Source: Candidatus Altiarchaeota archaeon (GTDB lineage Archaea; Altiarchaeota; Altiarchaeia; IMC4; SCGC-AAA252-I15). Taken from it: DNA of 14,494 nucleotides. The stretch spans positions 1 to 14,494 of the forward strand of contig JAZDIN010000048.1 in assembly GCA_043804895.1 (NCBI GenBank), in the 5' to 3' direction. Position 1 is the first letter of the stretch; each line of letters begins with the position of its first letter. A program made the position numbers and the translations under genes. Positions 1,159 to 12,963 of the stretch are shown here, in pieces. Under the pieces are notes generated by a model, which did not search any database, was not told the origin of the DNA, and was given only the letters and a program-made list of their open reading frames with translations.

Positions 1159-1312
1159 AGCCCCCGGGGGGATTTGAACCCCCGACCTACCGATTGCTTT
1201 GAACCTGAATTCTCCCGTTTTTCTTTCTTTGAACCCGAGGGCCTTTCTTTCTTCCTAAGAAAGAAAGGGGCTCTTACAAGTCGGTCGCTCCACCAGTCTG
1301 AGCTACGGAGGC
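1159..1312 (-). tRNA. tRNA-Thr(UGU) with 80-nt intron at 37/38
   Basis: Acceptor GCCTCCG/CGGGGGC, D stem GCTC/GAGC, anticodon stem ACCGA/TCGGT, anticodon TGT at 1278-1276, T arm GGGGG-TTCAAAT-CCCCC, discriminator U. 74 nt after intron removal. Confidence 0.97.
1195..1274 (-). other. tRNA-Thr intron (80 nt) carrying a family C hairpin element at 1221-1274
   Basis: Bulges UA|A and CA|A, central helix CUUG/AAAG (3 pairs plus G.A mismatch), closing helix GAGCC/GGUUC. First 54 nt match the tRNA-Leu intron at 52/54. Confidence 0.93.
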
Positions 1313-1448: not shown

Positions 1449-3149
1449 TTAGAGGGGTATTTGTTTCGTCACCCAGATGGTGGTCATGCTTGTGTCTGCT
1501 TGTAGCATGCCGAATTTGAGGTCGTAGTATTCGGCGTTCTCGTAGAAGGTTACTTTGCGGCTTTGTGATTTGCCGTACTGGTCTACGACGCGTATGTTAG
1601 CTCCTGTTGAGCAGTTTATCTCGCGTATGAGGCGTTCCAGTTTCAGCGTGTAAGATTGGTAGTCTACCTCCTCAGTCGCTGTCAGGTTCAGTGTGTCGTA
1701 TTGGTAGGGTATTCTAGCGCATGGTTTGCATGGTCCGCCGCAGTCTATCCTTGCTTCACCCTGGTTTTGTATGCAGTCATGGCAGTTTCCTTGTCCCTCC
1801 CGCCCTTCCATGCAGTCGTCCTGTCCTTCGACGCATATTCTCCCCCAGCCGCATACTTCGAGCACTTCTACTGTTTTTTTGATTGTGCAGTTAGCGGGTG
1901 GCGTGCCGGGGTCCGTGCAGATGTTTCTGGTGCAGTTGGTTGTAGGGTTGGCGGCGACATTGCAGTAAGGGGTTATGCACGAGTCCTTTCCGCAGTCTGT
2001 GTTTGTGTTGCAGAGTGCGTCTGTGTTGTTGCATGGTCTGCATTGTCCGCCGCAGTCCACCTTCTCCTCCCCTTCATCGTAGTCTCTTATCTTGTTTCTG
2101 CAGTATTCCGGGTAGCATTCGCCAAGCCAGCAGTACTCCCAGTCTTCGCATCCTTTAACTAGGCGCGGCTCTATGGCGGTGTATTGGCAGTATGATTGCG
2201 GAGCGCCAGGGTGGATGCACATCTGTCTGATGTCCGGGTTTTTGACGTATTTGCCTTCGCAGAACGGCTTATAGGGTATCTCCTTCTCGCACATGCTGTT
2301 GTTGTAGCATTTGGCTGGCAGAGTGACTACCGTCGTTTCAGTGGTTTGTGTTGAGGAGGTTGTTGTGGAGGTCGTTGTCGCCTCAGTGGTTGCTGTTGTT
2401 ACTGGGGGACACTGGCTCGTATCAGCTGCCCAGCTCCCGTCCCAGCACTGGTATTTGGTTTCAGTTTTCGTGAGCGAAGGCAGAACAGTCGCACCGAGGG
2501 CTGCGACAATTATGATGAGTAGGAGCGGTATTGCGTATCTTAGGGGGGAGGCGCCGCCTGGTTTTTTCGGCCGAGGCTCCTCGAACTCGATTCGCCTGTC
2601 CTCGAGGGGTTCGAGTGAGGCTCGCGGAGTCTTGGTTTTAGGTTTCTCTACAGGCTCTTGGGTTTCCTCTGGTTCCGGAGACTTCGACCAGGATATCTGT
2701 GGTTTGGTAGTTTTGTTGGTTTCCTTCTCAGGCTGTGGTTTGGCTTGTACGGGAGTGGTCGGTTGGTCTATCTTCGGCGGTTGCTCGGGTTTAGGTTTGA
2801 CTGGAATCGTTACGGTCACAGCATGCCTGACGCGTTCCTTCTCTAACTCGGCTTTCAACTCGTCAAACTCTTTTTCATCTTCTTCTGGTTGGGGTTTCGT
2901 TATCGCTTTAGGCTGCGGTGGTTCGGGCTTCTTCATACCCTGGTTTGCCCTCTCCCTCTGAAGTTCAGCCTTTAACTCGTTAAATTCCTTCTCATCATTT
3001 TTTGCTGGCTGCTGCTCTGGAGGCTTGGATTGTGCCTGCGGGGTAGTCGGCGCGATGGGCTTCTTTTTGGCGCGCTCCTTCTCCAACTCAGCCTTAAGGC
3101 CTTCCAACTCCTCATCCAACTCCTCAGAGTCCTCATCAGGTTCAGGCAT
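1449..3149 (-). CDS. Single-pass membrane protein: charged/Pro-rich N-terminus, Thr linker, Cys-rich extracellular region
   Basis: 566-aa ORF. Three LKAEL(E/Q)(K/R)ER coiled-coil repeats, TM YAIPLLLIIIVAALGATVL, poly-Thr linker, two DCGGxCxPC motifs and two 8-Cys modules. Confidence 0.85.
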   Translation of the reverse strand: MPEPDEDSEELDEELEGLKAELEKERAKKKPIAPTTPQAQSKPPEQQPAKNDEKEFNELKAELQRERANQGMKKPEPPQPKAITKPQPEEDEKEFDELKAELEKERVRHAVTVTIPVKPKPEQPPKIDQPTTPVQAKPQPEKETNKTTKPQISWSKSPEPEETQEPVEKPKTKTPRASLEPLEDRRIEFEEPRPKKPGGASPLRYAIPLLLIIIVAALGATVLPSLTKTETKYQCWDGSWAADTSQCPPVTTATTEATTTSTTTSSTQTTETTVVTLPAKCYNNSMCEKEIPYKPFCEGKYVKNPDIRQMCIHPGAPQSYCQYTAIEPRLVKGCEDWEYCWLGECYPEYCRNKIRDYDEGEEKVDCGGQCRPCNNTDALCNTNTDCGKDSCITPYCNVAANPTTNCTRNICTDPGTPPANCTIKKTVEVLEVCGWGRICVEGQDDCMEGREGQGNCHDCIQNQGEARIDCGGPCKPCARIPYQYDTLNLTATEEVDYQSYTLKLERLIREINCSTGANIRVVDQYGKSQSRKVTFYENAEYYDLKFGMLQADTSMTTIWVTKQIPL

Positions 3150-3275: not shown

Positions 3276-3333
3276 TCAGAGGGACTGAAGCGTCAGCGGA
3301 AGTCCCTCCTTCGTGAACCTTAGTAAGGTTCTA
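3276..3333. repeat. Family A double-hairpin repeat, copy 1 (abuts 3' end of tRNA-Pro)
   Basis: gagggact...agtccctc stem then gaacctt-agt-aaggttc stem; homologous to 4052-4161. Confidence 0.85.
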
Positions 3334-3406
3334 TGGGACCGCTGCGATTTGAACGCAGGTCACCAGCACCCCAAGCTGGGAGGATTCCAAGCTACCCCAC
3401 GGTCCC
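3334..3406 (-). tRNA. tRNA-Pro(GGG), no intron
   Basis: Acceptor GGGACCG/CGGTCCC, anticodon arm CCAGC-TTGGGGT-GCTGG, T arm CTGCG-TTCAAAT-CGCAG, discriminator A; 73 nt. Confidence 0.97.
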
Positions 3407-4051: not shown

Positions 4052-4161
4052 TCAGAGGGACTGAGCGAAGCGAACACAACCGACCTTTGGTCGGGTGTGT
4101 GTCCGAGACGAACGTCTCGGCCACATGTCCCTCCTTTCGCGAGCCTTTGATAAAGGCTCTG
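4052..4161. repeat. Family A double-hairpin repeat, copy 2 (abuts 3' end of tRNA-Ala), interrupted by a family B insert
   Basis: tcagagggactgagcgaagcgaa[B]gtccctcc...gagccttt-gat-aaaggctct. Compensatory change gaacc/ggttc to gagcc/ggctc relative to copy 1. Confidence 0.85.
4075..4126. mobile_element. Family B 52-bp double-hairpin insert, copy 1 (putative non-autonomous element)
   Basis: cacaaccgac-ctttg-gtcgggtgtgtgtccgagac-gaac-gtctcggccacat. Second copy at 12182-12234; the empty site is at 3301/3302. Confidence 0.75.
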
Positions 4162-4274
4162 TGGACTCGTCGGGATTCGAACCCGAGGCCCCCACCATTC
4201 TGTCGACTGCGGCCGCCAAACGGCTTGCCGCGCCGTTGCCAAGGTGGTGATCTACCGGACTGATCTACGAGCCC
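4162..4274 (-). tRNA. tRNA-Ala(GGC) with 39-nt intron at 37/38
   Basis: Acceptor GGGCTCG/CGAGTCC with G3.U70, D stem GATC/GATC, anticodon stem CCACC/GGTGG, anticodon GGC at 4240-4238, T arm TCGGG-TTCGAAT-CCCGA; 74 nt spliced. Confidence 0.97.
4198..4236 (-). other. tRNA-Ala intron (39 nt, GC-rich hairpin)
   Basis: ACGGCGCGGCAAGCCGTTTGGCGGCCGCAGTCGACAGAA. Central helix UUGG/ACAG with G.A mismatch; closing helix CGGC/GUCG. Confidence 0.92.
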
Positions 4275-4278
4275 TTTG

Positions 4279-4327
4279 TTCTTTCTTTCCGTGCACGCTT
4301 TCTTTCTTTTTAAGAAAGAAAGGGTGC
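4279..4327. repeat. Family C (CTTT/AAAG hairpin) repeat filling the tRNA-Ser/tRNA-Ala spacer
   Basis: ttctttcttt-ccgtgcacg-ctttctttctt-ttt-aagaaagaaagg-gtgc. Same arms as the Thr/Leu intron element; homologous to 12160-12260. Confidence 0.85.
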
Positions 4328-4429
4328 GCAGGGGTTGGGATTTGAACCCAAGGGGCCTTTTGGGCCACAGACTTTCTGTCGTTTGTGGTTAGCAGGCCTG
4401 CGCGTTGGACCGGACTCTGCCACCCCTGC
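4327..4429 (-). tRNA. tRNA-Ser(GCU) with 16-nt intron at 37/38
   Basis: Acceptor GCAGGGG/CCCCTGC, discriminator G, anticodon stem CAGGC/GTCTG, anticodon GCT at 4393-4391, long variable arm GGCC-CAAAA-GGCC, T arm TTGGG-TTCAAAT-CCCAA; 87 nt spliced. Confidence 0.96.
4374..4389 (-). other. tRNA-Ser intron (16 nt)
   Basis: ACCACAAACGACAGAA; central helix CUGC/ACAG (3 pairs plus C.A mismatch). Confidence 0.9.
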
Positions 4430-4510
4430 TTTGTGTATTCCTCTGTATTCGTCTGTATTCGTAAGAGAAGGGGTGCGTGACATGAAGTGTCGCATACACC
4501 CCTGCTTTGT
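4421..4510. repeat. 14-bp direct repeat duplicating the tRNA-Ser 5' boundary around a 62-bp insert
   Basis: cacccctgctttgt at 4421-4434 and 4497-4510. The insert holds three gtattc units at 10-bp spacing and a hairpin. Confidence 0.8.
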
Positions 4511-4535
4511 TGTTGGTTGTTATTGTAGGCAGGGG

Positions 4536-6001: not shown

Positions 6002-6832
6002 TTACTTCCAGAACAATATTGCCTGGAGTATTGTCTCTAGAAGTTCTATTATCCTGTCGAGTTTGGTGTTTGTGCGAGTGAATATTGGCTTTTGTGTCGT
6101 GGATGTTGAGGGGGGTTTTTGGGGTTGCGTTGTTGTGGTCGGGGCTTGTGTAGTGGCCGTGGTTTCTGTTGTTGTGGTTGTCGACGTGGTTTCTGTCGTT
6201 GTAGTCGATGTCGTCTCTGATGTCGTGTTTTCGCAGCTGCCAGCCTCACAGACCTGATTTAGGCTGCATGCTTCCAGTGTCACAGTCTCGTACATTTCAG
6301 CGCATTTGGATTGGGCTGTCCCAGGGTTATCGCAGTTCCACCATGTGACTGCCTGGGTTACGTTGCTGCCTTCGCAAGTTGGAGTCCCAATTATTGTAGG
6401 GGGGCAATCTGTGTTGTAGGAGCATGTTACGGTGAGCGGTCTTATAGTGGTCGTGGACGTTGGTTCCGGCTGCTGGCAGCGTCTGCCACCAACGACAAAT
6501 TCCGTGTAGCCTTCGTCCACAAGTTTGTCTATCCTGTACACCTCTACCCTCGCAAGGCGTAAGCCAGGTTTGATGTGGTCCCAGTCTTCAGAGTCCATTG
6601 AGGCTGAGACCTCTGTGAAGCCTGGCTTCAGGTTTTTGGTGTTGAACCTGTAGTTGTCAACGAAGAAGTCAGCGTGCAGGAGGCTGGCTCCCTCGCTCAG
6701 AATCGCCGTCACCTTCGCTGGTTCGCCGCAGTCAACCGGGTTGTTTGAGATATTGAGTAACACTGCAGCGCTTGCGCTTGTGGAGTATAACACCAGTAGT
6801 GTTATGGCAAATAATGATGTTCGTTTTTCCAT
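6002..6832 (-). CDS. Secreted/surface protein with beta-rich N-domain, 8-Cys module and Thr-rich tail
   Basis: Signal peptide MEKRTSLFAITLLVLYSTSASA, one 8-Cys module like those in 1449..3149, poly-Thr stalk, amphipathic C-terminus. Confidence 0.85.
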   Translation of the reverse strand: MEKRTSLFAITLLVLYSTSASAAVLLNISNNPVDCGEPAKVTAILSEGASLLHADFFVDNYRFNTKNLKPGFTEVSASMDSEDWDHIKPGLRLARVEVYRIDKLVDEGYTEFVVGGRRCQQPEPTSTTTIRPLTVTCSYNTDCPPTIIGTPTCEGSNVTQAVTWWNCDNPGTAQSKCAEMYETVTLEACSLNQVCEAGSCENTTSETTSTTTTETTSTTTTTETTATTQAPTTTTQPQKPPSTSTTQKPIFTRTNTKLDRIIELLETILQAILFWK

Positions 6833-11897: not shown

Positions 11898-12159
11898 GTA
11901 GAACAGAAAGGGCGAAAACAGTTTCAGTAAAAGTTGGACTCCATACCAGTTGAATCCGCGGATGTTGACGCTGAACCTCAGAAGGGTGTAAAAACCAGGT
12001 TGACTAACACCAAGACCTCGTACGCCCTGAACCTAAAGCCTCTTAAGCTTATCCATGGCGTGAGTTTATTCAACATGGTAAGCCTTTGTTGGGGAAAAGT
12101 TGTTCAGACATAATGGACCGGCATCCCCTTATCAACCCTACCCTCCTCTCGTTGTAAAC

Positions 12160-12260
12160 TTTTTCTTTTTCGTGCACGTTTCACAACCGACGCTTCGCGT
12201 CGGGTGTGTGTCTGAGACAAAGTCTCAGCCACATTCTTTTTTCTAAAAAGAAAAAGGTGC
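12160..12260. repeat. Family C repeat 3' of tRNA-Leu, interrupted by a family B insert
   Basis: tttttcttttt-cgtgcacg-ttt[B]tcttttt-tct-aaaaagaaaaaggtgc; aligns with 4279-4327 once B is removed. Confidence 0.8.
12182..12234. mobile_element. Family B 53-bp double-hairpin insert, copy 2
   Basis: cacaaccgac-gcttcgc-gtcgggtgtgtgtctgagac-aaa-gtctcagccacat. Differs from copy 1 only at the two hairpin tips and one compensatory pair. Confidence 0.75.
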
Positions 12261-12262
12261 TT

Positions 12263-12431
12263 TGCGGGGGACGAGGTTTGAACTCGCGCAGTCCTTCGAC
12301 ATAGGGTCTCTCAAAACCTACTATTACGCCTCGGAATGTTCTTTCTTTGAACCCGAGGGCCTTTCTTTCTTACGAAGAAAGAAAGGGGCTCTCCTAAGCC
12401 CTACCCATTTGACCAGCTCTGGCACCCCCGC
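12263..12431 (-). tRNA. tRNA-Leu(UAG) with 85-nt intron at 37/38
   Basis: Acceptor GCGGGGG/CCCCCGC, discriminator A, anticodon stem TAGGG/CCCTA, anticodon TAG at 12396-12394, variable arm GTC-GAAG-GAC, T loop TTCAAAC; 84 nt spliced. Confidence 0.97.
12308..12392 (-). other. tRNA-Leu intron (85 nt) carrying a family C element at 12339-12392
   Basis: Full BHB: bulges GG|A and AG|A, helix CUUA/UGAG, closing helix GAGCC/GGUUU. Confidence 0.93.
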
Positions 12432-12713
12432 AAAAGGGAAATTAAGCCTCAAATGGCCGTCTAAGTATAATGAAGTCATGAAATAAATAGGAAACCACAA
12501 GTCGATTCAGGACAATATCACACTTAACCCGCACTTTTTTCGCATGTACCAAGGCACGCCCATTTGACAAGAAGCCGCAGACAGGCGTACAGGAAAATGG
12601 TCTCGATTTGCCCTTTTCAGGCAAATGTCATATATAAGGCATTCAGTTCATAAAAGCCGTCTATATACCTTATAGGGCTTCTAAAAGGCGTTTAATGGCT
12701 TTTGTGTTTTGGA

Positions 12714-12768
12714 AAGTATTATACACTGTGTGTAATACTCGCAAGTATTATACACTGTGTGTAATACT
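12714..12768. repeat. Two tandem identical 26-bp near-palindromes
   Basis: aagtattatacactgtgtgtaatact at 12714-12739 and 12743-12768, separated by cgc. Each has 12-bp arms with one mismatch. Confidence 0.92.
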
Positions 12769-12963
12769 TTACCCTCTGAAATGCCATACCTATTAAAACG
12801 CCTTAAAATAAAAGCTGTAAGCCCTATTTAGCGTTTCTGGATTATCTTCCCCGAATCTATACCCTGAAACCCCTTGAAATCAATCACAGGCCTAGGTTGC
12901 ACCAGCACAAACAAGCGGCTTACAAGAACAAAAGGTGCAATGATATCGCACATGTAGAGGGGG

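Follow-up and report, generated by a model that had tools for sequence, protein, structure and literature searches.

A three-arm repeat module in the tRNA-Ser to tRNA-Ala spacer and in other discarded parts of stable-RNA precursors of Altiarchaeota

The Ser-Ala spacer and the tRNA genes of the window

The window, the whole stretch of 14,494 nucleotides that was analysed, comes from a Candidatus Altiarchaeota archaeon (contig JAZDIN010000048.1). Its minus strand carries five tRNA genes, namely Thr(UGU), Pro(GGG), Ala(GGC), Ser(GCU) and Leu(UAG). The tRNA-Thr(UGU) gene lies at 1159..1312 and has an intron of ~80 nt (Rfam and ARAGORN), tRNA-Pro(GGG) lies at 3334-3406, and tRNA-Leu(UAG) is found at 12263..12432 with an intron of ~85 nt (ARAGORN and reading of the sequence). 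The tRNA-Ser(GCU) gene, with a short canonical intron, occupies 4327..4429 (Rfam 36 bits) and is followed by tRNA-Ala(GGC) at 4162..4274 (Rfam 52.9 bits). The anticodons GCU and GGC of these two genes are taken from the Rfam alignment; ARAGORN misreads the Ser anticodon.

The spacer between Ser and Ala is 52 nt long and consists almost wholly of one copy of a three-arm module of ~55-65 nt, located at 4275-4327 on the minus strand. In the direction of transcription of the tRNAs, the copy begins with the closing strand P1a, GCAC (4327-4324), and a mismatch base C (4323). These are followed by the Y arm CTTTCTTTCTT (4322-4312), a loop AAA (4311-4309), the R arm AAGAAAGAAAG (4308-4298), a second mismatch base C (4297) and the closing strand P1b, GTGC (4296-4293). 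The linker part ACGG (4292-4289) leads to the third arm AAAGAAAGAA (4288-4279), and the four nucleotides CAAA (4278-4275) separate this arm from the start of tRNA-Ala at 4274. The first G of GCAC is also the discriminator of tRNA-Ser (4327), which bears out a preliminary description of this DNA that had read the spacer as mostly a repeat element overlapping the Ser discriminator. The copy is flanked by two complete tRNAs and does not lie between exon halves; 22 other copies of the family do lie in introns. The spacer RNA folds with -21.9 kcal/mol (z = -5.28; none of 200 shuffles folds as well) and is predicted to form one extended hairpin that leaves the final purine arm unpaired.

Exact copies of the hairpin are found at three places in the window (1243-1267, 4298-4322 and 12361-12385), and none appeared in 200 dinucleotide-preserving shuffles. 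The first and the last of these are the cores of modules on the minus strand at the 5′ ends of the introns of tRNA-Thr(UGU) (1217..1276) and tRNA-Leu(UAG) (12335..12394), both of the GGGTTC linker class. The intron of tRNA-Ala has no module. On the plus strand, the spacer copy shows the linker ccgtgcacg with the end gtgc, versus gaacccgagggc with ggctc in the intron copies, as the preliminary description stated. It had also placed a copy 2 nt past the Leu discriminator (12263). This copy is present as a degenerate long form on the minus strand (12159..12260), in which GCAC:GUGC closes a four-way junction and encloses the Y:R hairpin together with a nested double hairpin. All four copies in the window are in sense relative to their own tRNA, again as described. 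A separate long, near-perfect hairpin is found at 12712-12777 on the minus strand; its match to a microRNA family is at chance level (28 bits against a cut-off of 86).

Architecture of the module

The module was characterized from 75 copies, comprising 61 of the 63 hairpin sites of 19 related genomes, 3 same-locus variants and 11 copies from this genome. In the following, G000 is the genome under study, other G numbers denote related Altiarchaeota genomes and L numbers denote module loci. Two sites (L022 and L054) were not parsed because their third arm is degenerate, and 10 rows were dropped from the comparison because the pattern had joined two adjacent elements in a false orientation. The common plan consists of a flank GNNC(C), a Y arm T(n)CTTTCTT, a free loop of 3 nt, an R arm AAGAAAGA(n), a linker and a third arm A(n)GAAAGAA. 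There are three main classes of linker. The flank pairs with the linker across a C.C mismatch, giving a closing helix of 3-5 bp around a polypyrimidine:polypurine hairpin of 10-14 bp.

Both the closing helix and the lengths of the arms covary between copies. Among 49 distinct short copies, 195 flank-linker positions are paired, compared with 141.7 +/- 6.0 after re-pairing (0 of 10,000 reach 195), and the A-run of the third arm and the T-run of the Y arm have the same length in 67 of the 75 copies, compared with 28.0 +/- 3.6 for shuffles confined to each linker class (0 of 10,000), although such shuffle tests overstate independence because the copies are related. The closing helix is swapped between GAGC:GCTC, GCAC:GTGC, GAAC:GTTC and CAAC:GTTG, and a count for the strand of function gave 13 G.U versus 19 A.C, which singles out neither strand. 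All three runs are equal in 61 of 75 copies, over n = 3 to 6. Copies of the 8-mer linker class that have one more C in the flank also have one more G both after the R arm and before the third arm (8/8 copies), whereas the same double extra G occurs in 2 of the 23 copies of this class with the shorter flank. The run lengths and the extra-G rule therefore describe the third arm as a mirror of the R arm, which is the geometry of a triplex.

The short copies of the GGGTTC class, four out of four from three genomes and two families, are identical from the CCCC flank through the third arm except for the 3-nt loop. As only the loop varies, the body is under constraint, imposed either by the host or by the element's own spread. 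In the long forms, the stretch from the R arm to the linker holds one to three added hairpins, and a multi-way junction is then enclosed by the closing helix. A double-hairpin unit of ~55 nt is nested at this position, or stands after minimal modules (see below), in the window at 12172-12232 and about 4070-4132 (minus) and in G000 at C4:79402-79610 and C33:5172-5230. Different double hairpins occupy the same position of the module in related genomes.

A shorter module of the form GNNCC-T(k)-loop-A(k)-GGNNC-NCG-A(k)GG/CC is found behind 8-9 other tRNAs of G000. In the window, this minimal module lies on the minus strand behind tRNA-Ala (4133..4159, GAGCC-TTT-ATC-AAA-GGCTC-GCG-AAAGG) and behind tRNA-Pro(GGG) (3300..3331, GAACC-TT-ACT-AA-GGTTC-ACG-AAGG), and further examples are located on contigs C2, C15, C24, C25, C29, C30, C52 and C58. 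Minimal modules start 1-3 nt past the discriminator, and their third A-run equals k in 12 of 12 cases. Their third arm is a direct repeat of the R arm and not its mirror. Judged from the sequences, one rule fits the large and the minimal families alike: either purine arm can offer its ‘A(x)-G’ for pairing with ‘C-T(x)’. The module matches no covariance model of Rfam 15 at thresholds of E up to 1 for the window and 0.1 or 0.5 for 36 loci, the only matches in or next to modules being to tRNA and 5S rRNA.

Positions, orientation and turnover of copies

The hairpin is present in 20 of the 61 genomes of the phylum, and a reversed-pattern control gave none in all 61. This survey is blind to orientation because the seed hairpin is palindromic. 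In the set of parsed copies, which spans 21 Altiarchaeota genomes, ARAGORN assigned 22 of the 75 to introns and 25 to trailers, placed 1 in antisense inside an intron and left 27 without assignment. In the 22 intron copies, which open canonical introns on the 5′ side, 43-49 nt separate the T-run from the 5′ end of the tRNA, and the 25 trailer copies have their T-run 2-10 nt beyond the end of the tRNA. All 47 of these are in tRNA sense. The end formed by the closing helix is found 1-2 nt after the canonical 5′ splice site or 0-4 nt after the tRNA discriminator.

The other 27 copies were read by eye. Two are further intron copies and one is a further trailer copy, bringing the totals to 24 and 26; one of the two added intron copies, L017, occupies a non-canonical intron position. 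Three copies stand behind 3′ fragments of tRNAs and five behind 5′ fragments that precede a full tRNA. One lies 12 nt past a 5S rRNA (Rfam 75 bits) and one after an RNA resembling the C/D-box type, recognized by eye only and with no Rfam match. Six sense copies follow the ends of protein genes, which are those for MCM, the alpha subunit of pyruvate oxidoreductase, CTP synthase, a HAD hydrolase and two unknowns, and two copies are antisense to coding neighbours. The remainder of the 27 showed no clear context. Viral contigs contain five exact hairpins, and a third arm is seen only in L087, where a 7.9-kb IMG/VR contig holds one doubtful three-arm copy at 6441-6482; no tRNA was found there.

Copies linked to tRNAs are in sense in all but two cases, which are L039 and the tRNA-Arg(UCU) intron of G000. 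Both exceptions are situated at the 3′ end of the intron and turn the same closing-helix end toward the exon. The rule is therefore that the closing-helix end is set against the mature sequence.

The genome under study holds 19 copies, variants included. Eight are at intron starts, in Thr(UGU), Thr(GGU), Leu(UAG), Gln(UUG), Asn, Glu, Phe and Met, and five are in the trailers of Ser, Leu(UAG), Leu(GAG), Gly(UCC) and Asn. The remainder comprises three copies behind duplicated end fragments of tRNAs, two in the split tRNA-Arg(UCU) and one on contig C32. Thirteen of the 19 fall within the 0.13% of the DNA that is made up of ARAGORN introns and 30-nt trailers (binomial P about 1e-33). The C32 copy (2920-3045) is the only one in this genome without tRNA context; it lies between two diverged direct repeats of 38 nt, and Rfam found nothing there.

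When copies are mapped against tRNA and rRNA ends and strand, the majority do not lie in ordinary intergenic DNA in random orientation. The preliminary proposal of one family occupying both the 5′ splice site and the 3′ trailer in the same orientation is strongly supported by the 22 intron and 25 trailer copies in sense, set against 1 in antisense, among the 75. Its suggestion that copies survive only in discarded parts of pre-tRNA holds for the larger part but is too narrow, as copies are also found at the 5S rRNA, at tRNA fragments and at six protein-gene ends, and two antisense copies abut 3′ splice sites.

The presence of the module varies between related genomes. In G001 and G003, the orthologous Ser trailer is free of the module. 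A distance of 920 nt separates Ser from Ala in G001, the order of the two genes is reversed in G003, and the module of G000 sits at the new Ser-Ala junction. The gene upstream of tRNA-Ser in the window (4430-4520) is located downstream of Ser in G003 (C15, L062), and the Ser gene is therefore inverted relative to this neighbour. Three genomes of the same genus (G001, G002 and G004) have an intron-less Thr(UGU); the Leu(UAG) gene lacks an intron in G001 and G003 and contains a decayed module in G002. The Leu(UAG) introns of G009, G014 and G027 contain the module with three different linker classes. In G009, a private extension of both arms is common to the intron and trailer modules of Leu(UAG), which shows exchange between the two kinds of site. 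Within G000, the modules of the Thr(UGU), Leu(UAG) and Thr(GGU) introns are identical save for the loop, with one arm base and a nested insert also differing in Thr(GGU). Modules are gained and lost among the species of one genus, and the copies inside a genome are homogenised.

Several tRNAs are followed by an insert of ~70 nt and then by a second copy of their last 16-19 nt, which resembles a T-arm with a hairpin inserted in its loop. This arrangement is seen in G000 at C33:5054-5140, C15:31455-31540, C47 (below 21264) and C40 (below 893), and behind tRNA-Ala in G001 and G003 (L061 and L062). At L033:545-640 (G010), G000 C33:23460-23600, L021, L030 and L031, a direct repeat of the first 17-23 nt of the tRNA flanks the module and the full tRNA comes after it. 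At L050:540-720 (G019), the module lies between two copies of the first ~16 codons of a GatB/E-like gene (named by eye), which show synonymous differences. A conserved unit GTAGGGTTGATAAGGGCG..GCCCTTATG, found directly upstream of a tRNA or tRNA 3′ fragment at G000 C25:114376-114435, L022:460-492 and L074 (G003 C29), may be a shared promoter module.

Splicing, spread and alternative readings

In a search for one EndA subunit, the splicing endonuclease is represented in G000 (88.7% complete) by one PF01974 match of 111 bits in an open frame of 184 aa. A length of ~180 aa is that of the strict homotetramer type, to which this EndA may belong. In the minimum free energy fold of tRNA-Thr(UGU), GAGCC is predicted to pair with GGUUC just before the 3′ splice site, giving a bulge, 4 bp and a second bulge. 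In other predicted folds, the GAGCC flank pairs with the internal linker instead. A perfect 5-nt partner of the closing strand is located 3-8 nt before the 3′ splice site in 10 of 22 intron copies; this frequency (45%) is not better than the 40% of a cross-intron control.

The module is established as a real, clade-wide and structure-constrained repeat of those portions of stable-RNA precursors that are discarded. It probably spreads by copying, and its intron copies have probably been recruited into the splicing motif. The favoured reading of the spacer, with a probability of roughly 0.45, is that it is a copy of an Altiarchaeota-specific, non-coding, structure-constrained and non-autonomous repeat which persists in discarded RNA, the closing strand acting in introns as the outer helix of the splicing motif. 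Such a module would spread by transposition or gene conversion and would persist where its portion of the transcript is thrown away. In introns, the closing strand (GAGCC/GAACC) would be taken over as the outer helix of the bulge-helix-bulge needed by EndA. The module together with a short complementary 3′ segment would then suffice for a spliceable intron, and for this reason one and the same module could be a trailer and the start of an intron.

Searches for a mobilising enzyme, which covered the Y1 transposase and, in G000, reverse transcriptase, found none. The Y1 transposase domain PF01797 has no match in the module-rich genomes G000, G007, G009, G010, G014, G016 and G019, which have 4-9 hairpin sites each; there are 10 matches and 1 site in G026 and 9 matches and 2 sites in G020, and the domain does not track the module. 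There are no terminal inverted repeats: the element begins with the GNNCC flank and finishes with the A(n)GAAAGAA arm, and its inverted repeat is internal only. There is also no target-site duplication of fixed length: 47 of 75 copies have none, and ~10 have direct repeats of 16-48 nt which are variable and in some cases diverged. Identical bodies with differing loops could equally fit a host function under purifying selection. The sense orientation of 26 of 26 trailer copies has no obvious reason under a purely selfish element, for which antisense copies at these sites should be harmless.

The idea that the module is a host cis-signal for the formation of stable-RNA 3′ ends, as an oligo-T terminator or as a hairpin for processing or for stopping exonucleases, with the intron copies secondary, is possible but rather unlikely. 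It agrees with the start of modules 0-4 nt past the discriminator and with the shorter modules of the same plan behind 8-9 other tRNAs of G000. Further points in its favour are the copy after the 5S rRNA, the six sense copies after protein-gene ends, the T-runs on both strands of the module and the conservation of the bodies beside variable loops. However, the 24 copies inside introns need read-through, and the module takes up the whole of the Ser-Ala and Gly-Gln spacers (~50-70 nt), so that a promoter would find no space there. About 10 of the 26 tRNAs of G000 lack any hairpin trailer, and the module is missing from the Ser trailer of G001 and G003. The terminator variant is not supported, as T-runs of at least 5 nt are found in 6 of the 24 copies in introns and in 12 of the 26 in trailers, with no difference between them (Fisher p = 0.15).

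A second possibility is that the module marks the end of small cassettes or integrative elements which recombine, in the manner of an att site, into the tRNA 3′ end, the D-loop region or the anticodon loop. An att-like site in a tRNA gene would fix the polarity of the module. By eye, modules are seen behind duplicated tRNA 3′ ends of 16-22 nt (G000 C25:114454 and C33:5148, L020, L028 and L074) and behind duplicated tRNA 5′ ends (17-29 nt) with a full tRNA after them (G000 C33:23490, L021, L030, L031 and L033), and one stands behind a duplicated protein-gene start (L050). The Ser-Ala copy lies where the two genes were joined, with Ser inverted against its neighbour in comparison with G003. A model in which a tRNA fragment, a mobile element and the gain of an intron go together has been presented by Sugahara et al. 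2012 (PMC3293823). Nevertheless, the 47 of 75 copies without flanking duplication, the small size of the inserts between duplicates (~70-250 nt, with no integrase), the variable length and frequent divergence of the duplicates, and the lack of a recombinase tied to the module make this reading unlikely. Further copies of the 13-nt 3′ end of tRNA-Asp were sought, and none was found near the gene.

It is doubtful that the module acts as a triplex-forming element, in which an intramolecular triple helix would serve as an H-DNA-like barrier or affect RNA stability. The sense strand would follow the purine motif (Y-loop-R-linker-R), and the antisense strand would form a U.A-U / C+.G-C helix. The third arm mirrors the R arm across a linker of 8-15 nt as a homopurine mirror repeat of at least 10 nt, a likeness read at sequence level. 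Within each linker class, its A-run keeps step with the R and Y runs at n = 3, 4, 5 and 6, the extra C/G/G linkage described above points the same way (8/8 against 2/23), and if the third arm formed Watson-Crick pairs with the Y arm, only 2 of n adenines would be engaged. The minimal module, by contrast, repeats its R arm directly in the third arm, A(k)GG, with k matching in 12 of 12, and therefore has no triplex register. The simpler pairing rule for ‘C-T(x)’ and ‘A(x)-G’ fits both families, and in a quasi-periodic arm a mirror is hard to distinguish from a shifted repeat. To our knowledge, all-RNA purine-motif triplexes are not established. RNA triple helices of the MALAT1/ENE type adjoin a tRNA-like structure. 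The module is similar in that a hairpin and an extra homopurine/homopyrimidine strand stand in triplex register beside a tRNA processing site, here in sequence terms. It differs in that the transcript strand has one pyrimidine and two purine strands, with U-U-A in the antisense only, and no sequence relation exists.

An equally doubtful reading is that of a self-propagating module which targets the ends of RNA segments or the DNA encoding them, its three arms forming a triple-stranded or switching structure for propagation. A module of the trailer type that lands after position 37 would create a spliceable intron, because it would bring its own outer helix along. If this were true, Altiarchaeota would show the birth of tRNA introns in action. 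The RNA-level insertion suggested in the preliminary description, by which module RNA would be joined to fresh RNA ends (5′ exons, tRNA 3′ ends, broken tRNAs) and copied back to DNA, is highly improbable: the 5′ end of the module always stands on the 3′ end of an RNA segment (exon 1, mature tRNA, 5S rRNA or tRNA 5′ fragments ending in the D-loop) and the duplicated stretch of L033 starts ~10 nt upstream of tRNA position 1, roughly at the transcript start, but the reverse transcriptase domain RVT_1 has no match in the 88.7%-complete G000, and the two antisense copies keep the end-to-exon rule, for which a strand-symmetric rule of DNA or structure is simpler.

The favoured non-autonomous repeat has partial counterparts among known systems. 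Short extragenic palindromes of bacteria, REP/BIME, are mobilised by RAYT. The module resembles them in being short, multi-copy and conserved in structure, often at the 3′ ends of transcription units. Unlike REP/BIME, it has no Y1 (RAYT/IS200-type) transposase in the genomes where it is abundant, keeps a strict polarity relative to the RNA gene, occurs inside tRNA introns and possesses a third arm. Ca. Altiarchaeum hamiconexum is reported to have the highest density of MITEs among archaea, at 146 per Mb (PMC11602168). MITEs and the module have in common that they are small, non-coding and multi-copy, with insertion polymorphism between relatives and a repeat-rich lineage; the ends of the module, however, are not inverted repeats and there is no regular target duplication.

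In Thermoproteales, near-identical introns are found in non-orthologous tRNA genes, and the mechanism of their transposition is given as unknown (Fujishima et al. 2010, via the review PMC4090602). Comparably, Thr(UGU), Leu(UAG) and Thr(GGU) of G000 carry one module, and in both systems the splicing motif limits the sites of survival. The systems differ in phylum and in the shared unit, which is here a three-arm module at the 5′ end of the intron and not a whole intron. In the present set, 22 of 24 intron copies are at the canonical position and 1 (L017, by eye) is not. The module also forms trailers of tRNAs and of 5S rRNA, which the accessible portion of PMC4090602 does not report for the Thermoproteales introns. 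In Caldiarchaeum subterraneum, a tRNA 5′ fragment is followed by inserted DNA and an intact, intron-bearing tRNA (Sugahara et al. 2012, PMC3293823). Five loci here have a similar order, with a tRNA 5′ fragment of 17-29 nt, a module and a full tRNA. The Caldiarchaeum insert, as presented there, is a 1.8-kb element with a recombinase gene, compared with ~70-100 nt and no gene here.

A 2026 preprint on Asgard archaea concludes that ‘how they arrive remains open’. For the question of the origin of archaeal tRNA introns, the module offers a recognisable unit. It forms the 5′ part of many introns and the trailer of tRNAs and 5S rRNA, its presence varies within a genus, and it would carry the strand required by the splicing motif. 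Gain and loss of tRNA introns thereby become traceable site by site and testable in vitro. The length covariation of the three arms is a structural rule not predicted by a simple hairpin repeat. No description of a module common to introns and trailers was found in the literature, and the supplementary tables of PMC11602168 might list overlapping Altiarchaeum repeats.

In the split tRNAs of Nanoarchaeum, the trailer of the 5′ half supplies one strand of the bulge-helix-bulge (PMC4090602). A trailer-type module would likewise supply such a strand, here inside an intron. In contrast to the Nanoarchaeum genes as treated in that source, the genes are contiguous, and no split halves were found save for a contig break in tRNA-Arg(UCU). 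The two halves of this tRNA lie on different contigs of G000, at C17:24900-25130 (+) and C20:55730-55841 (-), which overlap by ~75 nt and then diverge. The intron implied by the two halves, ~230 nt long, begins with a minimal module and ends with an antisense module of the large type.
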